The position numbers and the translations under genes were made by a program. Below are positions 9,733 to 59,846 of a stretch of 64,000 bases of DNA, piece after piece. The notes below the pieces were generated by a model. The model was not told where the DNA came from, ran no database searches, and saw nothing but the letters and a program-made list of their open reading frames with translations. Within the stretch, counting starts at the first letter, position 1; every line of letters begins with the position of its first letter. The stretch lies in the sequence record PP430345; one strand, written 5' to 3'. The stretch is from Escherichia phage vB_EcoM-LTH01.

Positions 9733-10040
9733 CTTATCCTACGGTCACACAAGTCTGACCATCTATCTCTGAGCAAGGGATTTCAAAATGTCTCCCGTCC
9801 CCAAATACATCTCGCCACATAGTCTATTCGGAAGCGGGAGTCTATGCACACCCCTTGCGGTAAGTGACCTCACTTTGAGATCAGCATCTTCCTTATTCGA
9901 CGAGTTAAATTCTCTTTAAGGTAGCCAGTGTTCGCAGCACTAACTATGAGGTATCCGTAAGATGATTTCAGTCATCTACCGAAAAATTACACCAAGCAAC
10001 TACCTTAAAGAGAACTTCTTAGTAAAGGCCCTTGCGAGCC

Positions 10041-10421
10041 TTAATCTTCACCTTCTGCCATTTTATACTCACGAATCTGAGTAGTTAATGGAATAGCATC
10101 TTTAAATGCATCAGAAGGGCCTTGATGAGTTTCTGAATTTGCAGAAGTAGTTCCTCCTGCCAGATCCTCTTCATTATCTTCCATTGTGTACAGATTGTTT
10201 GCCTTTTCAGCTTGCTCAAGAATATACTTCGCAGTAGTTTCTTTAACTTTCTCTGTACCGGAAGTCAGTAGACCTTCCAGAGTTTTAATTGCTTGAGGAG
10301 TAAGTCTTGCAAACTCGGAACGAGCATGAAGAATTGCTCTCTCAGTATTGATTGCAATGCTTTCCTCTGTAGTAGGCCGACCGCGTTTTCGAGTAACGAT
10401 TTCAGCTTTAGCCATAAACAC
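10041..10421 (-). CDS. hypothetical protein with AT-hook-like KRGRP motif
   Basis: 126-aa ORF inside the tRNA region; N-terminal RKRGRPTTEE. Confidence 0.4.
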   Translation of the reverse strand: MFMAKAEIVTRKRGRPTTEESIAINTERAILHARSEFARLTPQAIKTLEGLLTSGTEKVKETTAKYILEQAEKANNLYTMEDNEEDLAGGTTSANSETHQGPSDAFKDAIPLTTQIREYKMAEGED

Positions 10422-10607
10422 CTCAATTCAGTCGATATAACTATATTAGCAGTATAATAGGATTATGTCAAGAACTTATTGAAATGTATTAAGAAATGAA
10501 ATGGGGGTGCGCCGTTTCTGCTGTAATCTACGTCGTTATCGTTGAGGGAACTCGTAGTCAGGGAACATCAGTCCGACGACTTATCGGGAGCGACCCGACT
10601 TCTTATG

Positions 10608-10682
10608 TGGTGGCCCTGGGTGGAATCGAACCACCGTCTGGCGATTATGAGTCGCTTGCTTGAACCGTCCAGCTACAGGGCC
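10608..10682 (-). tRNA. tRNA-Met (anticodon CAT)
   Basis: Acceptor GGCCCTG/CAGGGCC, anticodon loop CTCATAA, T-arm GGTGG-TTCGATT-CCACC, CCA encoded. Confidence 0.75.
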
Positions 10683-15894: not shown

Positions 15895-15903
15895 GGAGAA
15901 GTG

Positions 15904-17271
15904 ATGAGCGTAACTAAGATTATCGAACAACTGGCAGCAACCGGATCAACAAAAGAAAAAGAAGCGATCTTACGTAGTCATGCGGATAACGATGGCCTGC
16001 GTGAAGTATTTCGGGTAGCATATAGCAAAGAGTTAAACTTCTTTGTTCGCAGTTTTAAGGTTGATCCTGCAACTTTCCACCAAGGAAGCCGTAATCTGCA
16101 AGAGAGTATTGATCTTATCGTCAACGATGTTGCAAGCCGTATGTACACTGGGCATGAAGCTCGTGATGTTCTCACGAATGCCGTTCAACTGTGTGAAGAA
16201 CCCGAAACCCTGATAAAGATCATCAACCGCGATCTTGAGTGTGGTATCCAGACAACTCTGACCAACAAGGTTTGGAAGGACCTGATTACAGAGCCTCCTT
16301 ACCAGAGCTATACTCTTTTCAAAGAGGATCTCCTTCGTAATTTCAACTATGAGGGTGCTTTCTCCGACGAGAAGATGGACGGACTTTATGCAGACATTAT
16401 GGTTTGGCCTGAGCAGGTCATTTATCGTTCACGATCAGGGAAAGAGCTTAATTTCCGGTGTATTACTTCACTTGAGCAAAACCTGAAAGAAAAAGCCAAT
16501 TCTGATGGTCCTTTTGTTATGCACGGGGAAGGTTTAGTTATTGACCTGTCATACCCGCACGGGGTTCAACCACGAGAGATCGGTAACGGATATCTTAACC
16601 AAGATCCTGAAAACATTGATCCTAATCTGGTACGTTTGGTTGTTTGGGATGTTGTTTCTATGGACGAGTATATCGCACGTAAATCCAAGAAAAAATATAA
16701 AGACCGTCGTAAGCAGGTTGAAAATATTGTCAACTATGTTGATGAGTCTTCTCATTTCCAGATGATCCGTGGTCGTCAGATAGGCAGTCTTAAAGAGGCT
16801 ATTGACCACTTTATCGAAATGCGTTTGCAGAAGAAAGAGGGTACGGTTCTTAAAGAAGCGAATATGCCTTGGGGAGATAACAAGACTAAGAAAGGGATCA
16901 AACTTAAAAATGAGTTCGATGTTGATCTTGAGGTTGTGGCGACAACGCCTCACAAGAAGAAGCCTGGGCTTATTGGATCTCTGGTCTGCCGGACTCGTGA
17001 TGGACTTCTTGAAGTTGGTGCTGGGTCTGGACTTACTGATGCGCTTCGTAAAAAGCCGAGTGAGTATTTCATTGGGCAGATTATTACGATCAAGGCTAAT
17101 GACATTACTGATGCGGAGAATAAAGATCTGAAATCGCTGTTTTTGCCACGTTTAAATTATAAGTTTGTTGAACTTCGCTTTGATAAGAGCGTAGCCAACA
17201 GCCTGGAAGAAGTGATCGAAGCATCGAACTCTCTTCTGGATCTTCTTCGTAAAATTGCAGAGGAGGTTTAA
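15904..17271 (+). CDS. ATP-dependent DNA ligase
   Basis: Adenylation motif KMDG (DEKMDGLYADIMV); 455 aa; AGGAG RBS. Confidence 0.6.
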   Translation: MSVTKIIEQLAATGSTKEKEAILRSHADNDGLREVFRVAYSKELNFFVRSFKVDPATFHQGSRNLQESIDLIVNDVASRMYTGHEARDVLTNAVQLCEEPETLIKIINRDLECGIQTTLTNKVWKDLITEPPYQSYTLFKEDLLRNFNYEGAFSDEKMDGLYADIMVWPEQVIYRSRSGKELNFRCITSLEQNLKEKANSDGPFVMHGEGLVIDLSYPHGVQPREIGNGYLNQDPENIDPNLVRLVVWDVVSMDEYIARKSKKKYKDRRKQVENIVNYVDESSHFQMIRGRQIGSLKEAIDHFIEMRLQKKEGTVLKEANMPWGDNKTKKGIKLKNEFDVDLEVVATTPHKKKPGLIGSLVCRTRDGLLEVGAGSGLTDALRKKPSEYFIGQIITIKANDITDAENKDLKSLFLPRLNYKFVELRFDKSVANSLEEVIEASNSLLDLLRKIAEEV

Positions 17272-41223: not shown

Positions 41224-42069
41224 ATGGAAGAAATCGTAATGAATGGTCCGGCAAAAAACATTTGGGTGTCTCCAGTAACTTCTAACGATTGGCGTATTTA
41301 TGTTACGGATCTGCACAATTCACCTGAAGCACATATCGAGGCTGTTGACCTGATTCGTTCAGCACCAGAAGGTGATATTGTAAATCTGTACATTACTTCT
41401 TGCGGTGGTTATTGTGATATCGCAGATATGTACATGACAGCGATCTCTGAAGCTAAGGCGACTGTTGTGACACACGGCATTGGTGAAGTGGCAAGTGCTG
41501 CAACAATGATCTTCTTATCTGGTCATGTTCGAATTTGTCGTCCAGGTTCTCATTACATGTTTCACAACGTCCAGATGAGTATGGGTGGTGACTCGGCGCT
41601 GGTATTTAAACGTAGCGATTTCTACAAAGACCTGTTCAAAGAGAAATACTACGATCTGTACAAGGGTGTTATGACAGAAGATGAACTCGTTGAACTGTTT
41701 GATCGTGCTGGCGAAATTTACTTCACTTCCTCTCAGATGCAAGCCCGTTTGACCGCTGAAGATGAAGCAATTAAAAAGCAAATGGAAGCCGATCAACAAA
41801 ATACAGGGGGGATTAAGGTTGAAGGGTCAATCGAATCGAGTGATGTTGATGATGCGAAGGAAATCGGAGAGGGAGAATTTGAAATCGTCCTCGACGAAGG
41901 CTACGCCAAAAAATTCAACATCTTTACTCTTAACCCGCGAGACTTTGACGAGTACAACCTCGACGAACTAGACGAGATTGCGGAATGTTTCGGTGTTGAA
42001 CAGTACGTTTATTATCGTGACGAGTTAATTGAACAGATCATCACTGCGGCGAAAGAAGGGGGCAAATAA
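41224..42069 (+). CDS. ClpP-like serine peptidase (S14 family)
   Basis: GEVASAATMIFLSG and MFHNV matching ClpP Ser/His regions; acidic C-terminal extension. Confidence 0.6.
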   Translation: MEEIVMNGPAKNIWVSPVTSNDWRIYVTDLHNSPEAHIEAVDLIRSAPEGDIVNLYITSCGGYCDIADMYMTAISEAKATVVTHGIGEVASAATMIFLSGHVRICRPGSHYMFHNVQMSMGGDSALVFKRSDFYKDLFKEKYYDLYKGVMTEDELVELFDRAGEIYFTSSQMQARLTAEDEAIKKQMEADQQNTGGIKVEGSIESSDVDDAKEIGEGEFEIVLDEGYAKKFNIFTLNPRDFDEYNLDELDEIAECFGVEQYVYYRDELIEQIITAAKEGGK

Positions 42070-42071
42070 GA

Positions 42072-42581
42072 GTGGCAGCATTGAAACCTAAAGCAGAGCG
42101 CCGTGAAAATGATCGCTATGAAACTCCGAAATGGGCAGTAGATGCTTTCTTGAATTTAGTTCCAATCCGTCAGGATTGGACTTATCTGGAACCTTGCAGA
42201 GCCTCTGGAAGTTTTTATAATGAAATGCCAATTGGTTCAGCCTGGGGAGAGATTCAAGAAGGTGTTGATTATCTTGCAACTAAATACAATAAGGTAGATT
42301 GTGTGTTAACTAATCCACCTTACAATTTAGCTCAAGAGTTTGTAGAAAAAGCGCACAAGGATGCTGATGTAGTGATCATGCTTCTTCGTTTAGGTTTCCT
42401 TGAGAGTACCAAACGTGTTGAGTTCTGGAAGCAATACCCTGTTGATCACTTAGTTACTTTATCTAAGCGACCTTCTTTTACTGACGATGGTAAAACAGAT
42501 GGTGCAGCATATGGTTATTTTATTTGGGATAAAAAAGGTAAACTTGGTTTAACAAAACCTTTTTACTGGATTCACCCTTAA
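42072..42581 (+). CDS. small putative N6-adenine DNA methyltransferase
   Basis: EPCRASGSF (motif I-like) then LTNPPY (motif IV); only 169 aa. Confidence 0.4.
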   Translation: MAALKPKAERRENDRYETPKWAVDAFLNLVPIRQDWTYLEPCRASGSFYNEMPIGSAWGEIQEGVDYLATKYNKVDCVLTNPPYNLAQEFVEKAHKDADVVIMLLRLGFLESTKRVEFWKQYPVDHLVTLSKRPSFTDDGKTDGAAYGYFIWDKKGKLGLTKPFYWIHP

Positions 42582-42587
42582 ATTTAA

Positions 42588-42613
42588 AGGTCACCTTTGG
42601 GTGGCCTTTTTTA
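42588..42613 (+). terminator. rho-independent terminator
   Basis: GGTCACCTTTGGGTGGCC hairpin then T6. Confidence 0.65.
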
Positions 42614-42641
42614 TTGACTTGAATTCATGGATGTGTATAAT
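42614..42641 (+). promoter_or_regulatory. sigma70-like promoter
   Basis: TTGACT, 16-bp spacer, TATAAT. Confidence 0.55.
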
Positions 42642-43198: not shown

Positions 43199-44449
43199 AT
43201 GAAAGTTTACTTGGTAGGTGGCGCAGTTCGTGATGAACTGATGAGTGTTGAAAGTAAGGATCGGGACTATGTAGTCGTCGGCGCGACCCATGAAGAAATG
43301 ATTGAAAAGGGATTTACTAAGGTTGGTGCAGCTTTCCCTGTGTACCTTGAACCAAACACAAAAGAAGAGTACGCTCTTGCTCGAACGGAAAGATCAACAG
43401 GTCCTGGTTATCACGACTTCGAGGTTGTGTTCTCTCCCGACGTTACAATTGAACAAGACCTGATGCGAAGAGATTTGACCATTAATGCTATTGCCAAGGA
43501 TCTTTCTACGGGTGAAATTATTGACCCTTGCGGTGGTGTACTCGATATTGAACTTCGTCGGTTACGTTGTGTATCCACTAAAGCATTTATCGAAGACCCT
43601 TTACGTGTATACCGATTAGCCAGATTACATGCCAGATACGGCGGCGAGTTTACAATTGATCCTGAGACTTGGGGAATGTGCAAGGATGTTGATTTAAGTG
43701 CATTGCCAAAAGAGCGTAAATTTGCAGAGATTAAGAAATGCTTTAGTGATCAGTCAGAAATGAATAAACCTTCGGTAATGATCCGTATGTTGACTCAACT
43801 GGGAGAATTTCCTGAGCTTGTGGATTTATACGATGTTGTTCAACCCAAGGAGCACCACCCTGAAGGTGATGCATTTGTTCACACTTTACTTTGCATGGAT
43901 TATGCCCAAGCGACTCGTGCAAGTGAAGCTGTGAAGTGGGCAGTTCTGTGTCACGACTTAGGGAAATGCATTTATTGGTTAACAGGTAAATTGCACGGGC
44001 ATGAAGAACATGGTATCAAGTTGACTGAACAAGTTTGCGATCGCTTTGGTGTTCCTAACAATTGGAAGAAGTTAGCTTTAGCTGTAACTGAGCACCATAC
44101 ACGACTTCACCGTATCAAAGAGATGAAGCCAAAGAAAGTTTACGACTTGTTGGTAGCCTTACGTGGTGAAAAGGACCAGGCATTCCTTTCTGAGTTTATT
44201 GACGCTTGCATCTGTGATGCTCGTGGTCGTGGCCCTGAAAAAATGTTTGACAACTACACCCAGCCTTTGGTATTATTCTCAGCACTGGCGGGGATTGTTC
44301 AAAACAGCGTTGCAATCTCAAAAGAAAGTAAAGAGATTTCTGAAAGATTTGCTGGACGTCCAGAAGAGATCAAGAATAGAATCCGAAATGTAAAAGTAAG
44401 GTACGTTACACAATACATCGATAAGATGAAGGAGAGTGAAAATGGTTGA
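43199..44449 (+). CDS. cca: tRNA nucleotidyltransferase (CCA-adding enzyme) with HD domain
   Basis: MKVYLVGGAVRD head motif, HD-domain histidines (CHDLGK); start at ATG 43199 after AGGAGAAG. Confidence 0.8.
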   Translation: MKVYLVGGAVRDELMSVESKDRDYVVVGATHEEMIEKGFTKVGAAFPVYLEPNTKEEYALARTERSTGPGYHDFEVVFSPDVTIEQDLMRRDLTINAIAKDLSTGEIIDPCGGVLDIELRRLRCVSTKAFIEDPLRVYRLARLHARYGGEFTIDPETWGMCKDVDLSALPKERKFAEIKKCFSDQSEMNKPSVMIRMLTQLGEFPELVDLYDVVQPKEHHPEGDAFVHTLLCMDYAQATRASEAVKWAVLCHDLGKCIYWLTGKLHGHEEHGIKLTEQVCDRFGVPNNWKKLALAVTEHHTRLHRIKEMKPKKVYDLLVALRGEKDQAFLSEFIDACICDARGRGPEKMFDNYTQPLVLFSALAGIVQNSVAISKESKEISERFAGRPEEIKNRIRNVKVRYVTQYIDKMKESENG

Positions 44450-44765
44450 AGGTTATTTGATCGGTTGTCTTATTAGTTGCCCACTTTGGTTCTTACTGAT
44501 CAAATTACGGCAGAAGGGTTTTAACATTCCGTTCCCCAAGGATAGTGAAGACCTGTATATCCTAGAACCCCTGAACAATGAAAATGTAAATTTACGTATG
44601 GTCATGGTTGGTTGGCTATGTGCAACATTCTTCTGGTATCTTGTTTACCCAATTATTATCTGTGTTGCAATTGGGTCGTACTTGGTGTTCGGTATAAAAA
44701 GTTTATGTGGCCTTACTATAGGGAATGATAAATTACTAACTAAGATCTTTGGGGTTAAAAAATGA
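44436..44765 (+). CDS. small multi-pass membrane protein (paralogue A)
   Basis: 109 aa; WFLLIKLRQKGFNIPFP; paralogous to next gene. Confidence 0.5.
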   Translation: MKMVEGYLIGCLISCPLWFLLIKLRQKGFNIPFPKDSEDLYILEPLNNENVNLRMVMVGWLCATFFWYLVYPIIICVAIGSYLVFGIKSLCGLTIGNDKLLTKIFGVKK

Positions 44766-45082
44766 CAAGTTTATTAACGTATATTTTATGTTGCATTATA
44801 AGTTCTGCCGCTTGGTTCTTGTTAATCAAGCTTCGCCAGGGTGGGTTTCGTATCCCTTTGCCAGAAAACAGTAACTTACTCGACCCTTTAAATCACGGAA
44901 ATGTTAATTATAAACTCCTGATGCTAGGTTGGTTAATAATGACTGTATTCTGGTTTGTAGGGTGGCCTTTCTTGATTTTGTTTTATGCTCTTGCGTGGAT
45001 TGTTTATTCAACTATGGTTGTTTATAATCTAACGATTGGTAATGAAAAGTTTGCAAAACGAATTTTTGGAGGTAAGAATTGA
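44762..45082 (+). CDS. small multi-pass membrane protein (paralogue B)
   Basis: 106 aa; WFLLIKLRQGGFRIPLP; same architecture and LTIGN(D/E)K...IFG tail as paralogue A. Confidence 0.5.
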   Translation: MTSLLTYILCCIISSAAWFLLIKLRQGGFRIPLPENSNLLDPLNHGNVNYKLLMLGWLIMTVFWFVGWPFLILFYALAWIVYSTMVVYNLTIGNEKFAKRIFGGKN

Positions 45083-45534
45083 AAACTCGGATGTACGTAT
45101 TGGTAAACAGCTACATGATGGGAATCCAAGCAGGTATCCAAGCAGCACATGCAGCAGCAAACCTTGTAGGTCATTATGGCTTTGCCTATGCCGATCGATA
45201 TGATGACAGATACAACCTTGTAGATCAGTGGCAAAGCAAAGACCAAACAATGATCTTGTTGAACGGAGGCTATCAATCGAAGATGCTTAATTTTGCAGAA
45301 GGATTTTTAGCTCCAAACATAGAGAAGATTCCTTACGCATTTTTCTGCGAGGAGAATGATTCTTTGAATGGTGCACTTACGGCTATTGCTTTTATTCTTC
45401 CTCAACATATGTGGGATGTTAAGTTAGTTGATGGTCGTTGTCCTCTTTTCTCTGATACAATCGATCATAAGTATACGCAAAAAGAAATGGACTTTATCGA
45501 AGCATTTAAATCTTTCAAGCTTAAGCAGGGGTAA
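45079..45534 (+). CDS. peptidyl-tRNA hydrolase, PTH2-family-like
   Basis: RMYVLVNSYMMGIQAGIQAAHAAA parallels PTH2 [25 protein letters not shown]; QWQ...ILL follows as in PTH2. Confidence 0.45.
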   Translation: MKTRMYVLVNSYMMGIQAGIQAAHAAANLVGHYGFAYADRYDDRYNLVDQWQSKDQTMILLNGGYQSKMLNFAEGFLAPNIEKIPYAFFCEENDSLNGALTAIAFILPQHMWDVKLVDGRCPLFSDTIDHKYTQKEMDFIEAFKSFKLKQG

Positions 45535-45935: not shown

Positions 45936-46330
45936 TGACTGCACCAATTTTTGAATACGTTACACTGATCTCTTTCTTTATCTTGGGGCTGATTATCCAG
46001 ATAGTGGCAGTTGCCTATTACAATCTGAACATCGATACCATGAAAAATAAAATCGTATATCAGAAAAAGAAAAGTGTAATTGGTTATTTGTTTACATTCC
46101 TTCTATCAGGTTTTGCAATGTACCTCTCATACTCTCTGATGCTTTGGGCGGGTAATGTTTCAGATATTGCCACCGCGATTTTAGTGATTCACTGGACTGG
46201 TGTAATTTATAGTACAATGATGTGCTTTAAGAAAAAGCTTAAAATCACCAGTCATGGACTTTATGGGAGCTTCTTTTATACGTTGACACTTGTTGTGTTG
46301 ATGATCATTTATGGTGTGAAATGCCTATAA
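45935..46330 (+). CDS. hypothetical 4-TM membrane protein
   Basis: 131 aa with four hydrophobic segments. Confidence 0.45.
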   Translation: MTAPIFEYVTLISFFILGLIIQIVAVAYYNLNIDTMKNKIVYQKKKSVIGYLFTFLLSGFAMYLSYSLMLWAGNVSDIATAILVIHWTGVIYSTMMCFKKKLKITSHGLYGSFFYTLTLVVLMIIYGVKCL

Positions 46331-46420
46331 ATAAAAAAGATTGCACAAGCTGCGTAAACTTTATAAAGATTAAACAGGCCAACTGGGTTGGCTTGTGTGA
46401 CTTACATGATTGGAGGATAA

Positions 46421-47548
46421 ATGGAAAATTCAGTTGTGAGTGCTGGAAAGGTAAAAAGTATCGTAGAGAAGATGGAAAAGCATCCAGACGTAGCAAAGGT
46501 CTTGATGTTGAGTCTGGCAGGATCTCATGCGTATGGTACGAATAACGAAGGCAGTGATATTGATATTCGTGGGGTTTTTGTTGCAACTCCAAATGTGGTT
46601 CGTACCCCATTCAAAGAGGTTACTGAATTAAACATCCCTGGTGAAGAGGATGCCAAGATCTACGAGTTGGGAACTTTCCTTCAACTGTTTTCGAAGATGA
46701 ACCCAAATATCATTGAACTGGGTTTTACTGATCCGAAAGCCACATTGTACGAGCACGAAGCTTGGAAAGAGATGAAAGAACATTTCTACTCCTTACTGTC
46801 TCGTGAAGTTGCATTTCGCTTCAGTGGTTATGCAATGTCTCAGTTAAAGCGGATCAAGGGTCACAACAAACACATTAATAATCCGCAACCAAAAGAGCCA
46901 CCAACTCAATTTGACTATTTCCGTCTGGTGCAGAGCTATCTCGGAGAAGGTGAGTTGAAGTATGAAGACTTTGTTCGTAAATTTAAAAACATGGAAGGCT
47001 TCTGTACTCTGGTTCCTTACGGTGGTAACATTTACGGTGTTGTAGAAGATCGTAGTGAAGATGTTCAACCAATGTTTAATAAAGATGGTTCTATCCGTAA
47101 GCTGGATTATGAAGAAATCCCAGAGGAGGTTAAAAGAGGTAAGACACTGATGATTGTTAAGTATTGTGCAGACGATCATAAATGGGCCAAGGATAAACAT
47201 CACAACTACTGGGAGTGGGTTAAGAATCGTAACGAGAAGCGTCATGAACTGGAAGAGAAGTTCGGTTACGACACTAAACATGCTATGCATTTGGTCCGGC
47301 TTCTTCGGATGGGTGAAGAAATCCTCACAGAAGGTAAAGTTTTAGTGAATCGACCAGACGCTGAAGAACTCCTCGCAATCCGAAATGGTGAATACCGCTA
47401 TGAAGAAATTGTTGACTGGGCTGAAGAAAAAGATAAAATGATCACAGATGTTCTTTATAAGCAATCGAGCTTACCGAAGAAAACAGATCTGAAGATTGTT
47501 GAAAAACTTATTCTGGAGGCACAAGACAAGGTATGGAAGGAAACCTAA
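46421..47548 (+). CDS. Pol-beta superfamily nucleotidyltransferase (substrate unknown)
   Basis: GSHAYGTNNEGSDIDI (GS-x9-DxD) near N-terminus; 375 aa with alpha-rich C-terminal region. Confidence 0.5.
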   Translation: MENSVVSAGKVKSIVEKMEKHPDVAKVLMLSLAGSHAYGTNNEGSDIDIRGVFVATPNVVRTPFKEVTELNIPGEEDAKIYELGTFLQLFSKMNPNIIELGFTDPKATLYEHEAWKEMKEHFYSLLSREVAFRFSGYAMSQLKRIKGHNKHINNPQPKEPPTQFDYFRLVQSYLGEGELKYEDFVRKFKNMEGFCTLVPYGGNIYGVVEDRSEDVQPMFNKDGSIRKLDYEEIPEEVKRGKTLMIVKYCADDHKWAKDKHHNYWEWVKNRNEKRHELEEKFGYDTKHAMHLVRLLRMGEEILTEGKVLVNRPDAEELLAIRNGEYRYEEIVDWAEEKDKMITDVLYKQSSLPKKTDLKIVEKLILEAQDKVWKET

Positions 47549-49118: not shown

Positions 49119-49280
49119 AATTTCACATTAAGGTATACCCTATGGGTCAGATCTGGTCCATAGGTATTTTCTATGTATTAAAATCGATTTAAGTTATTTA
49201 AATACTTTTTTGAAGTCTTGTTGTAAAAATTAACAACATAGTGTTCATGACCGATCTTCGCTGTTGTATTTTTTCATAAT

Positions 49281-55176: not shown

Positions 55177-56376
55177 ATGTTAGAAATGTTGAACTTAGGT
55201 GCTGTGGCCTCTCTACCGCCGATTGATGGTGAAATTTCACCTGAATTTATCCAAGCGCAGCAATCGATAGTTATGTATCTTCACAGGCCAACTGGCAATC
55301 TTTACGGGTATGGTAATGCACCTGTATACCGATTCGGAGACGGTATCCCAACAGAAGTGCCGAGCTTTAAACTTATCTATTCAAACTGTAAATATTTCTG
55401 GTTGGGTCAGGCTAGTACACTTGTTGCAACAAACGATGATAAATTCTATTATGCTGGGGTCAGAAACGCATTTCCACCACTGGGGACAGGTGGTGGTAAC
55501 GTTGCTTACTTTACTGAAGTTACAGTACATTTTAACAATATTGGTGTGACACCTGATGATATAAAAACTCTGGCGCTCGGTAGCGGATCTTGTAGGCTTC
55601 TGACAAAAGATGGTCGTGTTTTCTGCTGTGGTCTTAACTCTAATGGTGAGTGTGGGAACGGTACAAGAAATATGATTGCAAACTTTGTCCAGATCACCAA
55701 TATGGGACCTATATCTCAATTGGCTACAAGGGCTTTCGGTACTCATTTCTTAACTGAAGATGGCAGGGAATTCTTTGCAGGGTACGATGCTTACGGGGAA
55801 AGTGGCCTAGGTGCTCTTAACAGCCACTTACAAACTCCAACATTGGTTACTTCGGGTGTTAAAAACATAATTGTTGCTACGGTATGTACTTGGAGAATAA
55901 TGCAAAATGGAGACGTGTATTGGAGCGGTTTGAATACTCAAGGTTCTGCGGGAACAGGTTCATTTAACAACGCAGGTACGGTCCTAAGACCTATAAAAAA
56001 CGATGCCTTGAGTGGAAACTTACCGGAGGGTGATTTATTATATCCATCAGGCATCCAAACAGGTGATGCAACGGGTGCTCCGATCATTTGTTTCGGGAGA
56101 AACACTATCAAAAACGGTGGTGAAAACGGATCAGGTCAAGTGGGTGATGGTGTAAGTTATACATCGGTATATAACTATGTGGACATGTACAAACCTGCAA
56201 CCTTCGGAGATAAAAAGGTTATTGGGGTGGCTAAAGATTATGTACGATCATTTATCTTAACTGAAGATTATCAATTGTTTGCCGCAGGTGGTAGAACAGC
56301 AAGTGGATGGACACTCCCTGATGGAGGGACCAGTGTTACACCCATGCGCCTCATGGCTAGTATGCCTTGGTACTAA
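55177..56376 (+). CDS. RCC1-like beta-propeller repeat protein (paralogue 1)
   Basis: Starts MLEMLNLG; repeated Gly-rich units e.g. CCGLNSNGECGNGT, WSGLNTQGSAGTG. Confidence 0.55.
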   Translation: MLEMLNLGAVASLPPIDGEISPEFIQAQQSIVMYLHRPTGNLYGYGNAPVYRFGDGIPTEVPSFKLIYSNCKYFWLGQASTLVATNDDKFYYAGVRNAFPPLGTGGGNVAYFTEVTVHFNNIGVTPDDIKTLALGSGSCRLLTKDGRVFCCGLNSNGECGNGTRNMIANFVQITNMGPISQLATRAFGTHFLTEDGREFFAGYDAYGESGLGALNSHLQTPTLVTSGVKNIIVATVCTWRIMQNGDVYWSGLNTQGSAGTGSFNNAGTVLRPIKNDALSGNLPEGDLLYPSGIQTGDATGAPIICFGRNTIKNGGENGSGQVGDGVSYTSVYNYVDMYKPATFGDKKVIGVAKDYVRSFILTEDYQLFAAGGRTASGWTLPDGGTSVTPMRLMASMPWY

Positions 56377-56389
56377 TAAGGAGAATAGA

Positions 56390-57523
56390 ATGTTAGAGAT
56401 GTTAAATTTATCTGGCGCGGCAGGGAAGGTCCCATTTAAGTTGAAAAAGTTTGATATTACAGCAAGCGAAAGTATTCACTTGCTTAGTGAAGCTGGCAAT
56501 CTGTACTCAATATCACCTACAAATGTAAACTTATCGGGAACGGGTGTTACCACAACGCAGTGGACGTTAGTCTCTTCGGGTGTAGATGACTTCTGGGCTG
56601 GGCAAGCTTCGCTCTTGTTCAAAACAAAAGGGGGATCGTGGTTTATTACAGGGTATAACTTCTTCGTACCTAGAGTAGAGAATACGCCCGTTGACGTAAC
56701 GGCTAAGGTAATGGCAATCAATAAGCCGATAAGAAAAATAGAAATGGGTGCTAATGCGATCGCTTTCCTTTATACAGATAATACTCTGGCAGTTGCGGGA
56801 TCAGGCCCCCATTTAGGCTTAGGTTCCAATACTTCAGTCCCGAATTTAACTTATGTTGAACCACCAAATACTTCGTTGGGTATCAAAGATGTTGCGATAT
56901 TGGATACTTCAGTTACTACCTGGATTATAAGCGGGGGTGATGTATACGGATGTGGAAACGGGGCTTACTCTAAGTTTTCTTCTTCCAACGGGACAGGCCA
57001 AAGGACCTCTTTTGTTAGGATACCAAACCCAATAAACTCAGCACCACTTGCATTAAAGACTGGATATGAGTGCGTGTATATTTCAGGCTCACGCACAGAC
57101 GGGGATGAATTGATACTCGGCTTAGGTAGCAACGCATATGGGTCATTAGGTGCAGCATCTACTGTTGCAACTGTAACTGACATATCTGTAGTCACAAGCA
57201 GTGTTTATTCACCCGCTTACGGGTTTTACCCTCTCGCCCAAGGTCTTGTGAGGAGAATAAATAACAATATCGGTATTACGGGGAGGACTGCGGGGACAGG
57301 CTGGGGATTGGGAACTCAGACGTATTACGGTATTACTAGAATAACCACTACAGCAAGTCCGTTATGGGGTCAAATATTTCAAAGGGGTGAGTATACAAAC
57401 ACTTACGTTCTGGCAGAAGATGGTATTTTGTATGGGTCGGGTGGGGCTTCAACAGGTAAATTACCTGGTTACACAACAGATCAGTCAACCTATGTGCCAC
57501 TGGACCTTACCGGACTTGAATAA
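56390..57523 (+). CDS. RCC1-like beta-propeller repeat protein (paralogue 2)
   Basis: Start at ATG 56390 (MLEMLNLS) after AAGGAG; same repeat type. Confidence 0.55.
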   Translation: MLEMLNLSGAAGKVPFKLKKFDITASESIHLLSEAGNLYSISPTNVNLSGTGVTTTQWTLVSSGVDDFWAGQASLLFKTKGGSWFITGYNFFVPRVENTPVDVTAKVMAINKPIRKIEMGANAIAFLYTDNTLAVAGSGPHLGLGSNTSVPNLTYVEPPNTSLGIKDVAILDTSVTTWIISGGDVYGCGNGAYSKFSSSNGTGQRTSFVRIPNPINSAPLALKTGYECVYISGSRTDGDELILGLGSNAYGSLGAASTVATVTDISVVTSSVYSPAYGFYPLAQGLVRRINNNIGITGRTAGTGWGLGTQTYYGITRITTTASPLWGQIFQRGEYTNTYVLAEDGILYGSGGASTGKLPGYTTDQSTYVPLDLTGLE

Positions 57524-57532
57524 GGAAAAATT

Positions 57533-58672
57533 ATGTTAGAGATGATGAACTTAGGTTCTGTCGAATTGCCAGAAGTGGAAGGTAACGTTAAGAAATTCGC
57601 CGCCGGAGGTACGGGGATTGTTGTACTTATGAAATCCGGCAACGCCTACGGTATCGGAGATCAATACTTCAGCGGTACAGGGGGGAATGTTACAACATGG
57701 AGGCTTCTGGCAAGAAACGTTGCAGATATATGGGCTGCAACTGGCTCTGTGCTTATGAGGACAACCGCAGATAGATGGTTGTTTATGGGGTTTAACCAAT
57801 ATTTTAATACTGGTTTTGGAACTACGATAACCACCCCCAGAGATATAACTACAGATATGCCTATACCCGAAGGATTTGAGATCAAGCAGTTGGTACTCGG
57901 GTATCGTAACTTGGCTGTTGTCTTTACCAATGGGCGGTATGCAATGTGCGGGACTAATAACGCAGGAGGTCTGGGGACAGGGGACACTTTTGCAGTAAGA
58001 ACCTTAACCTTAAGAACTGACTTCACAAACGTTGAAAAAATAGATCTTGATTGGGCAACCTACGACACATCTTATCTTCTTACCCAAGCTGGTGAAGTTT
58101 ATGTATCAGGTGTTTCAAATAATGGACAAAACGGGACAACTTCAAACACTACAACTTGGTTTAGGCAAAGCCCAATTAGTGGTGGTACGGTAGTTGACAT
58201 AATCGCGACAACGCTTGGGTTTTTTAGGGTTGTACTTTTAAATGGTAATTACTACGTCTACGCACAAGGGCGAAGTTCGTCAGGGAGTCTTGGGGTAAAT
58301 AACTCAGGTAACATAAACGTTCTTTCACCCTCATTGGTATTTTCTAATGTACCTTCAAGACCTCCTTTGTACATTGGTCACCTTAGCGCCCGTATTCTCC
58401 ACCCCGAAGAAAGGGTATACTATACAGGGGCGGCTACGGGTAGTTTACAAGGAGCAGGTGCACAATTTCAGTCGTCGTATTCAGTATTTACACGGCTTGC
58501 AGAGACTGTACCGTATGGTGGAGAATATTCATCCCTAAAAGGTGGCTATGTTGCACACTACTATGTAGATAAAGGAAACCTATATGGTGTCGGTAATAGC
58601 AGTGCAGGATTGCTCCCAGGTTACATAGGTACACAACTCTTCGAATTTACACCGTTGGAATTGCCGGAGTAA
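57533..58672 (+). CDS. RCC1-like beta-propeller repeat protein (paralogue 3)
   Basis: MLEMMNLG; near-collinear with paralogue 4 (FMGFNQYFNTGFGTT, TLTLRTDFTNVEKIDLDW). Confidence 0.55.
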   Translation: MLEMMNLGSVELPEVEGNVKKFAAGGTGIVVLMKSGNAYGIGDQYFSGTGGNVTTWRLLARNVADIWAATGSVLMRTTADRWLFMGFNQYFNTGFGTTITTPRDITTDMPIPEGFEIKQLVLGYRNLAVVFTNGRYAMCGTNNAGGLGTGDTFAVRTLTLRTDFTNVEKIDLDWATYDTSYLLTQAGEVYVSGVSNNGQNGTTSNTTTWFRQSPISGGTVVDIIATTLGFFRVVLLNGNYYVYAQGRSSSGSLGVNNSGNINVLSPSLVFSNVPSRPPLYIGHLSARILHPEERVYYTGAATGSLQGAGAQFQSSYSVFTRLAETVPYGGEYSSLKGGYVAHYYVDKGNLYGVGNSSAGLLPGYIGTQLFEFTPLELPE

Positions 58673-58694
58673 AAAACTTCAAAAGGGGAATTAA

Positions 58695-59846
58695 ATGTTA
58701 GAAATGATGAACTTAGGCACTGTTAAACTTCCTGCGGGAGGAGGCAGGGTCAAGAAGTTTGCAGCGGGGCAACAAGGCATCGTTGTACTTATGGAGTCTG
58801 GGAAACTCTATGGTCGCGGAAGTCAGTATTTTAGTGGTACAGGGTCTACTGTAAACACTTGGAAACTGCTAGGAACAGATATCGCAGACGTATGGACGGG
58901 TCCCGTATCAACTCTTGCAAGGACAACAGACGACAGATGGTTGTTTATGGGATTGAACCAATATTTTAACACTGGTTTTGGGACAACATGGTCCGCGCTG
59001 ACGGATGTTACAGTGGATATGCCTATCCCTGTTGGCCTTACGGTTAAGCAGGTAGTGATGGGATACATAAACGTTGCAGTAGTCTTTGCAAATGGACAAT
59101 ATGCCATGTGTGGGACAAATGTCTCCGGTGGATTGGGTGTTGGTAACACATCACCTGTGAGAACCTTAACATTAAGGACCGATTTTACGAACGTGGAGAA
59201 GATAGACCTCGATTGGGGGACATATGATACCTCCTATCTTCTTACCCAAGCTGGTGATGTTTATGTGGCCGGACAATCTTCTTATGGTCAAAACGGAACA
59301 CAGTCTAGCTCCACAACTTGGTTCAGGCAAAGTTCAGTTAGCGGCGGGACAGTGGTAGATATAGTTGCAACAACCTTAGGGTTCTTCAGGATCGTTCTTT
59401 CATCAGGGAGTTACCGAATATATGCGCAAGGGAGGGACATAAACAATAGTCTTGGAACTAACACCACAAGCAACACACCTCGACTGGCCCCTGTATTAGT
59501 TCTTTCGGGAATAGCAAGTGCAGTAAGACCAAGGGTATATATCAGTCACTATGCTGCCCGAGTTATAGATAGCGATGGAGTAGTATACTTTACAGGACAA
59601 GGGACGGGAGATCTACAGGGTGTTGGGACCACACCTCAACCAACGTATCGTGTTTTTTCACAGCTTGACCCAATAGTTCCGTCCGTAGGTGATTATTTTT
59701 CCACAAGATCTCAGTACCTGACTAACTATTATTTGGAAGATGGTGTTCTGTATGGTGTTGGTCAGGGTGCTCAAGCAACACAGTTACTACCTGGTTATGG
59801 AACGACACAGGTTCTGACTTTCTCTGTTCTGGAATTACCGGAATAA
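58695..59846 (+). CDS. RCC1-like beta-propeller repeat protein (paralogue 4)
   Basis: MLEMMNLG; closest to paralogue 3. Confidence 0.55.
   Translation: MLEMMNLGTVKLPAGGGRVKKFAAGQQGIVVLMESGKLYGRGSQYFSGTGSTVNTWKLLGTDIADVWTGPVSTLARTTDDRWLFMGLNQYFNTGFGTTWSALTDVTVDMPIPVGLTVKQVVMGYINVAVVFANGQYAMCGTNVSGGLGVGNTSPVRTLTLRTDFTNVEKIDLDWGTYDTSYLLTQAGDVYVAGQSSYGQNGTQSSSTTWFRQSSVSGGTVVDIVATTLGFFRIVLSSGSYRIYAQGRDINNSLGTNTTSNTPRLAPVLVLSGIASAVRPRVYISHYAARVIDSDGVVYFTGQGTGDLQGVGTTPQPTYRVFSQLDPIVPSVGDYFSTRSQYLTNYYLEDGVLYGVGQGAQATQLLPGYGTTQVLTFSVLELPE

Follow-up and report, generated by a model that had tools for sequence, protein, structure and literature searches.

Cutting of tRNA is a common form of host defense against phages (anticodon nucleases, PARIS, retrons, Cas13, and toxins), which they counter with repair enzymes and with tRNAs of their own. 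RlaP is the least understood enzyme of this phage tRNA-repair toolkit. The family was named in 2016 after its linkage to RNA ligases and was predicted to replace, ahead of ligation, the nucleotides that cleaved RNAs have lost. According to a review, it is the most prevalent repair nucleotidyltransferase (NTase) of jumbo phages. Here, we analyze a gene at positions 46421 to 47548 of a 64,000-nucleotide stretch of Escherichia phage vB_EcoM-LTH01 (record PP430345), the whole of which we call the window. We find that this gene encodes a phage RlaP (Pfam PF10127) of the long form, which belongs to one family with T4 NrdC.11. Its homology and its surroundings suggest that the protein probably adds one or two nucleoside monophosphates (NMPs) to RNA 3′-OH ends and is directed at tRNA, acting most likely in the repair of acceptor ends together with a neighboring CCA-adding enzyme that carries an HD domain (hereafter the CCA/HD enzyme).

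The chemistry of the family has been described for the RlaPs of P. fluorescens and P. aeruginosa in a December 2025 preprint (10.64898/2025.12.29.696909). These enzymes add one or two NMPs to RNA 3′-OH ends, accept any NTP, also use dATP efficiently on RNA 3′ ends, prefer Mn2+, and take neither DNA nor protein as a substrate. They favor the 5′ half of an anticodon-cleaved tRNA mimic, partly rescue the aminoacylation of a tRNA that is short of one nucleotide, and also labeled full-length tRNAs in total RNA in vitro. The crystal structure exhibits an N-terminal NTase domain and a C-terminal helical domain with a cleft between the two. The same preprint lists T4 NrdC.11 as a viral RlaP (cluster 5 of its sequence similarity network). 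T4 tolerates the deletion of its nrdC.11 region in the laboratory (PMC9825161), in keeping with an accessory role. The RlaP family and its presence in phages (T4 NrdC.11, jumbo phages) are already known, and the window adds neither a new kind of enzyme nor a new signaling system.

The window gene is an open reading frame (ORF) on the plus strand that starts with ATG, encodes 375 amino acids (aa), and closes on a stop codon, as seen in the ORF listing and the translation of the window. Comparing it with the orthologue of Escherichia phage UPEC06, we find 59 nucleotide differences, 46 of them at third codon positions, and 10 aa differences. The ratio of nonsynonymous to synonymous substitution rates (dN/dS) is 0.063. 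Because of this ratio and of the 5117 homologues found at E ≤ 1e-3 in a large protein collection, the ORF is a real gene; it is functional and under strong purifying selection. The original prediction, made from the letters of the DNA, had proposed a 375-aa gene here, and the ORF, its Shine-Dalgarno sequence (Table 1), and the selection acting on it all agree. The DNA of the region is 93 to 95% identical to that of the Escherichia phages A7_1, A73, W70, A5-4, and UPEC06 (Vequintavirinae), and the A7_1 protein is 99.5% identical to the window RlaP. A Cys-rich ORF of 74 aa (46321 to 46545) overlaps the first 125 nucleotides of the gene in another frame and runs across the intergenic hairpin GCCAACCCAGTTGGC (46378 to 46392). 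It has no annotation in the relatives and is probably spurious.

The window protein passes the Pfam gathering threshold for RlaP (PF10127, 'RNA repair pathway DNA polymerase beta family') with 68.6 bits against a cutoff of 23 (E 8.8e-19). Among the matches listed, 119 of 120 homologues carry the same domain. The match is confined to the N-terminal half of the protein (aa 15 to 145 on positions 9 to 140 of the 249-position profile), and a Pfam search with the C-terminal domain alone returned nothing significant. Besides RlaP, the protein matches NTP_transf_2 and Polbeta and no other Pfam family; PHROGs places its full length in a family termed 'nucleotidyltransferase' (Table 1), while the NCBIfam and PADLOC scans assigned no family.

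Profile comparison extended the homology over both domains. For this, we used a profile of 42 close homologues of the window RlaP (A1) and a five-way alignment of divergent RlaPs that includes T4 NrdC.11 and gp3 of Mycobacterium phage Dietrick (A2). Dietrick gp3, a protein of 288 aa, matches the whole Pfam RlaP profile (177 bits), and its hhalign alignment to A1 has a probability of 98.3% (E 1.8e-14, 233 columns), taking in aa 26 to 147 and aa 268 to 374 of the window RlaP with a single long gap in between. The corresponding comparison of A1 with T4 NrdC.11 gave 97.2% (E 3.6e-11, 260 columns). This coverage and the residues that are invariant in A2 establish that the catalytic triad is intact and that both RlaP domains are present. 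Thus, the call of a polymerase beta (Pol-beta) NTase in the original prediction was correct. Its framing of the substrate as unknown, with the orphan status that this implies, is not supported, as the protein belongs to a named family with a described chemistry (10.64898/2025.12.29.696909).

The GS and DxD residues of the NTase signature lie within GSHAYGTNNEGSDIDI (aa 34 to 49). Ten residues (H36 to S45) stand between S35 and D46, and the motif is therefore GS-x10-DxD, not the GS-x9-DxD that had first been read. The acidic residues D46, D48, and D77 are invariant in both A1 and A2. By homology, they would be the metal ligands of the enzyme. D77 lines up with an Asp of 'DIDRTIYSL' in the canonical RlaP when A1 is aligned with Dietrick gp3, and its catalytic role is suggested by analogy with the Pol-beta fold. 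The other residues invariant in A2 are G34, S35, G39, T40, P95, G136, Y137, and Q141 in the first part of the protein and G282, D284, K286, H290, R293, E300, D313, and G323 in the later part.

An AlphaFold2 model made from A1 (predicted local distance difference test score, pLDDT, 91.5; predicted template modeling score, pTM, 0.77) falls into three parts. These are an N-terminal alpha/beta NTase domain (strands 24 to 33, 48 to 55, and 79 to 82) with an N-terminal helix at aa 8 to 20, a beta-rich part at about aa 160 to 250, and an all-helical C-terminal part at aa 250 to 374 with a terminal helix at aa 357 to 374. The alpha-helical C-terminal region that had been predicted earlier is thus seen in the model. 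The C-terminal domain is homologous to that of the canonical RlaP, with aa 268 to 374 aligned to Dietrick gp3, the residues D284, K286, H290, and R293 invariant, and a helical fold in the model. A motif of the HEPN RNase type (Rx4-6H) at R270 to H275 was ruled out, as H275 is not conserved in A1. The gap in the alignment with Dietrick gp3 corresponds to a clade-specific insert of about 120 aa. Its motif KGHNKWINNPQP is invariant in A1, and its strands (167 to 172, 195 to 201, 204 to 209, and 242 to 248) were modeled with pLDDT 82 to 95. As seen in A2, the insert is present in the homologues of Vibrio phage D69 and Serratia phage BF and partly in T4 NrdC.11; it is absent from the canonical 288-aa RlaP. 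A Pfam search with the insert alone (aa 156 to 250) found no family.

With the characterized Pseudomonas RlaPs, the window protein has in common the family hidden Markov model, the GS...DxD...D NTase domain, the C-terminal D-T-K...H..R signature, and a predicted action on RNA 3′-OH ends. It differs from them in its insert, in the direct Pfam match of its N-terminal half only, and in its linkage to a CCA/HD enzyme instead of RtcB or another RNA ligase. T4 NrdC.11 (NP_049709, 336 aa) is likewise a long-form phage RlaP with equal catalytic residues and extra sequence between the domains; however, BLASTP aligns just the N-terminal 113 residues of the two (25% identity, E 2e-6), and the T4 genome encodes RnlA, RnlB, and PseT elsewhere, which the window lineage apparently does not. 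Dietrick gp3, from a Bixzunavirus, is homologous end to end over both domains but lacks the insert, is about 27 to 29% identical, and is gene 3 at the left end of its genome.

Searching the PDB with the sequence of the window RlaP and with the A1 profile, we found no close solved structure. The best Foldseek matches of the model were kanamycin NTase, MNT antitoxins, 3c18, and Hailong HalB, at template modeling (TM) scores of 0.2 to 0.34. Among solved folds, the two-domain MNT/HEPN-like NTases (KNTase ANT(4′), LinB, 3c18, and MntA), in which a minimal NTase domain and a helical bundle form a cleft, come nearest. These matches back the general architecture of a minimal NTase plus helical bundle and nothing more specific; no close solved fold emerged from the structure prediction that had been suggested as a check. 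The predicted viral structures that match the model are other phage 'nucleotidyltransferases'.

Kinship to CD-NTases (cGAS/DncV-like NTases), MenT/AbiEii toxins, and antibiotic NTases, which the original prediction had raised, gained no supporting match in Pfam, PADLOC, or Foldseek. For the cGAS/DncV-like enzymes of CBASS, there was no PADLOC, SMODS, or Mab21 match, and CdnD appeared in Foldseek only at E 0.32 to 0.49 and TM 0.15 to 0.17. The MenT/AbiEii family (DUF1814) had neither a Pfam nor a PADLOC match. The aminoglycoside and lincosamide NTases (KNTase, LinB) are distant structural neighbors only (TM 0.24 to 0.34). MntA of the type VII toxin–antitoxin systems scored 18.9 bits against a cutoff of 60 in NCBIfam (NF047752), over aa 26 to 49 only, and its structure (PDB 5yep) matched at E 0.73.

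Two rival explanations follow from these comparisons. The protein could nucleotidylate a small molecule or a protein, in the manner of KNTase and LinB or of MntA, GlnE, and DrrA, possibly with a host defense factor as its target. The nearest solved folds (KNTase at Foldseek E 1.6e-3, LinB, MNT antitoxins, DrrA, and GlnE), the weak sequence matches to MntA, and the likeness of the C-terminal bundle to the HEPN and KNTase-C domains would fit such a role. Support for this idea is very slight, and we regard it as highly improbable. Least probable of all is that the enzyme makes a signaling nucleotide, as CD-NTases and OAS do, or blocks the acceptor ends of host tRNAs in the manner of a MenT-like toxin. 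It shares with these enzymes the minimal GS...DxD signature, and the labeling of full-length tRNAs by RlaP in vitro makes MenT-like blocking chemically conceivable. There is very little else in favor: PADLOC gave no match, Pfam gave no SMODS, Mab21, OAS, or AbiEii/DUF1814 match, the TM score to CdnD was about 0.16, and poisoning tRNA ends would be an unlikely strategy for a phage that depends on translation and encodes CCA repair within this unit. Between the two functions offered by the original prediction, modification of tRNA or synthesis of a signaling nucleotide, an action on tRNA or another RNA is therefore favored.

The gene lies beside tRNA enzymes, as the original prediction had noticed (Table 1). 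The order in the putative transcription unit is the CCA/HD enzyme, two small membrane proteins, a hydrolase, two small ORFs, RlaP, two unknown ORFs, and a protein similar to aminoacyl-tRNA synthetases (aaRS). The CCA/HD enzyme scores 381 bits against the NCBIfam model 'multifunctional CCA addition/repair protein', under the 451-bit cutoff. Like RlaP, this class II CCA-adding enzyme (PF01743) belongs to the Pol-beta superfamily, adds to tRNA 3′ ends without a template, and is part of the phage tRNA-repair toolkit; unlike RlaP, it has another family and body domain and adds the specific sequence CCA, whereas RlaP adds any one or two nucleotides. The hydrolase has a sub-threshold match to the Pfam peptidyl-tRNA hydrolase family PTH2 (E 0.0097) and may be another tRNA-directed enzyme. 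The aaRS-like protein weakly matches the SerRS catalytic core (E 2e-4, far under the cutoff); being too short for a complete aaRS, it is probably a class-II aaRS-like paralogue. For both the hydrolase and the aaRS-like protein, PDB sequence searches gave no informative match.

Table 1. Features of the RlaP gene and its surroundings in the window
Feature	Position	Strand	Evidence and remarks
Terminator-like hairpin (42586-42609), then strong sigma70-like promoter (42614-42641, 11/12 matches); putative start of the RlaP transcription unit	42586..42641	+	Consensus scan
CCA-adding enzyme with HD (phosphohydrolase) domain	43199..44449	+	Pfam PolyA_pol and HD; phrog_2244, 6.9e-132; 2 kb upstream of RlaP
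Hydrolase, 151 aa, weakly PTH2-like	45079..45534	+	phrog_3668 'hydrolase', 1.7e-37; 0.9 kb upstream of RlaP
Shine-Dalgarno GGAGG, ATG 4 nt further 3′	46412..46416	+	Read from the sequence
RlaP-family NTase gene, 375 aa, including stop	46421..47548	+	ORF; PF10127; phrog_388, 3.9e-79, full length; dN/dS
N-terminal minimal Pol-beta NTase domain, about aa 22-147	46484..46861	+	Pfam RlaP; hhalign to Dietrick gp3 and T4 NrdC.11
Catalytic motif G34-S35-x10-D46-x-D48	46520..46564	+	Invariant in A1 (42 sequences) and in five divergent RlaPs
D77, putative third catalytic carboxylate	46649..46651	+	Invariant in A1 and A2
Clade-specific beta-rich insert, about 120 aa (aa 148-267), with KGHNKWINNPQP	46862..47221	+	Gap in hhalign to the 288-aa RlaP
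C-terminal helical RlaP domain (aa 268-374) with D284, K286, H290, R293	47222..47542	+	
Short class-II aaRS-like protein, 192-202 aa	48510..49118	+	phrog_4806 ('histidyl tRNA synthetase'), 1.5e-55; 1 kb downstream of RlaP
Terminator-like hairpin, 11-bp stem and T-run; putative end of the RlaP transcription unit	49139..49164	+	Consensus scan; next strong one on the + strand

The same association was seen in other phages. We surveyed 80 IMG/VR loci and clustered the neighbors over 84 loci. The order CCA enzyme, hydrolase, RlaP is retained in Seunavirus SPLA5a, and the order CCA enzyme, RlaP, aaRS-like protein is retained, with no annotated hydrolase, in Certrevirus phiTE. The CCA enzyme lies 1.2 to 3.8 kb upstream of RlaP in all 15 of the 15 closest long IMG/VR loci, directly upstream of it in locus L024, and directly downstream in L087, and its adjacency to RlaP recurs in three different arrangements among related phages. 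The hydrolase family of the window (phrog_3668) occurs together with RlaP in 10 of 38 long loci and also in D69, SPLA5a, and the contig L085. In Vibrio phage D69 (43% identical) and in L085, the CCA enzyme, the hydrolase, RlaP, and an RnlA-type RNA ligase are all found within 10 kb; D69 additionally has a Thg1-like gene and L085 has PseT. In Serratia phage BF, RlaP and a Thg1-like gene are 3 kb apart.

The orthologue in phiTE (L003:5001-6125, NC_020201) is annotated as three coding-sequence pieces because of two in-frame TAG codons. They fall at residue 266, where TGG has become TAG and an invariant Trp is replaced, and at residue 306. Apart from these codons the frame is unbroken, and it shares 65% identity with the window RlaP. 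The phiTE copy could be a pseudogene, a sequencing artifact, or a case of amber suppression.

An RNA ligase was then sought in the window together with the rest of the A7_1 genome (loci L010 and L011), which served as a whole-genome equivalent. Performing tblastn with T4 RnlA, RnlB, and PseT, the D69 ligase, and two Thg1-like proteins, we obtained a best E of 0.16. No RNA ligase, RtcB, or kinase domain turned up when the other large ORFs were scanned with Pfam and PHROG, although small or very divergent ligases could escape such scans. These ORFs were instead assigned to an ATP-dependent DNA ligase, nucleases, nucleotide-metabolism enzymes, and structural proteins.

This result bears on the classical role of RlaP, in which the enzyme refills the anticodon-loop nucleotides excised by 'smart' anticodon nucleases (RloC) and a host ligase or an unrecognized phage ligase then seals the break. 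It is the model proposed for the family, and the relatives D69, L085, L039, L062, and L066 do have an RnlA-type ligase 3.5 to 4.5 kb from RlaP, with PseT as well in L085. The window, too, encodes an ATP-dependent ligase (15901 to 17271), but this protein matches DNA-ligase domains, and the searches of the window lineage detected no gene similar to Rnl1, Rnl2, Pnkp, or RtcB. Sealing by the host also meets a difficulty, since host RtcB requires a 3′-phosphate end whereas the products of RlaP end in 3′-OH. The incompatibility of the end chemistries of RtcB and RlaP is raised in the preprint itself (10.64898/2025.12.29.696909). We therefore consider the classical role rather unlikely for the window RlaP. 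As neither an RNA ligase nor a polynucleotide kinase was found in the lineage, ligase-free repair of the acceptor 3′ end seems likelier than repair of the anticodon loop followed by ligation, and the conserved partnership with the CCA/HD enzyme in a genome without a detectable ligase suggests the same.

The repair of acceptor ends by RlaP and the CCA/HD enzyme would proceed as follows. The window RlaP, judged by its homology to canonical members, would work without a template, attaching one or two NMPs, taken from any NTP, to RNA 3′-OH ends with a preference for damaged tRNA. It appears to be co-transcribed with the CCA/HD enzyme, the PTH2-like hydrolase, and the aaRS-like protein, in what appears to be a tRNA maintenance module. 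In a possible division of labor, the HD domain would first turn 3′-phosphate or cyclic-phosphate ends into 3′-OH ends, RlaP would replace the nucleotides removed from tRNA ends by host nucleases, and the addition of CCA would afterwards complete the acceptor end.

Several points weigh against this reading. The identity to canonical RlaPs is only about 25 to 29%, the characterized members are the Pseudomonas enzymes, and the key biochemical source (10.64898/2025.12.29.696909) is a preprint without peer review. The 120-aa insert between the domains could change the choice of substrate, and an untemplated addition restores the correct base only part of the time. The association with RNA ligases, after which the family was named, was not seen in the window lineage. 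The promoter and terminator consensus matches that delimit the unit are no more numerous than in shuffled sequence. Finally, the tRNA context of RlaP is recurrent but not universal, since the largest group of loci has a recombination module instead. This group, a single metagenomic clade with 44 to 47% identity to the window RlaP, makes up about 60 of the 80 IMG/VR loci, and the neighbors of RlaP there are recombination genes and not tRNA genes.

Unbiased neighbor clustering gave the order gp32-like, UvsX/RecA-like, RlaP, unknown, UvsY-like, and UvsW-like helicase for this clade (among others, L060, L075, L063, and L074). Such a position between gp32/UvsX and UvsY-like/UvsW genes would fit an RlaP that serves DNA replication or recombination and not tRNA repair, for example by extending RNA primers or by adding dNMPs to RNA 3′ ends. 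The T4-like genomes often hold accessory genes between core replication genes. The recombination context comes from one group of related contigs and counts as a single observation; in the window, the neighbors of RlaP are tRNA-related and replication genes do not adjoin it. The efficient use of dATP on RNA 3′ ends by the Pseudomonas RlaP would agree with a role in replication, but DNA is not a substrate of the characterized enzymes (10.64898/2025.12.29.696909). Taking these together, we find a replication role improbable and retain the repair of acceptor ends with the CCA/HD enzyme as the preferred explanation.

The UvsW-like helicase of L074 (L074:11963-14572, 870 aa) has a LAGLIDADG_3 domain between its helicase motifs, which suggests an intein or a homing-endonuclease insertion.

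Other features of the window were noticed around this unit. Two adjacent, overlapping ORFs between the CCA/HD enzyme and the hydrolase (44436 to 44765 and 44762 to 45082; 109 and 106 aa) encode paralogous hydrophobic proteins that have in common WFLLIKLRQxGFxIPxP and LTIGNxK...IFGxK. They represent a tandem duplication of a small membrane protein within the CCA-RlaP unit (44436 to 45082). Upstream of the unit, at 41224 to 42581, there are a ClpP-like protease (281 aa) and, after it, a 169-aa protein whose match to a DNA methyltransferase PHROG is confined to positions 200 to 380 out of 458. phiTE and UPEC06 keep this pair ahead of the CCA-RlaP unit as well. The window has five tRNA genes on the minus strand at 9235 to 10682 (Gln-TTG, Gly-TCC, Pro-TGG, Tyr-GTA, and Met-CAT), and the CCA/RlaP module might act on these phage tRNAs too. 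Further downstream (55177 to 59846), four successive ORFs of about 380 to 414 aa all carry the RCC1-like beta-propeller repeat PF25390 and form a tandem array of paralogues.

Taken by itself, the window RlaP is a fairly ordinary tRNA-repair accessory gene, a recognizable member of an annotated family. What the window offers is a clean natural case, with an RlaP under strong selection beside a CCA/HD enzyme in a genome that has no detectable RNA ligase. It is tempting to go one step further, to an idea that we put forward as speculation and hold to be doubtful. In the Vequintavirinae, which seem to have neither an RNA ligase nor a polynucleotide kinase, RlaP and the CCA/HD enzyme, possibly together with the hydrolase and the aaRS-like protein, might rebuild acceptor ends that have been trimmed past the CCA independently of any ligase, for example by restoring the discriminator base and then the CCA, and the insert might give RlaP a recognition of tRNA ends that canonical RlaPs lack. 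If true, ligase-independent rebuilding of acceptor ends would be a counter-defense route distinct from the Pnkp/Rnl paradigm of T4. The window makes testable the question of whether an RlaP repairs tRNA ends without ligation, and of what its insert contributes.

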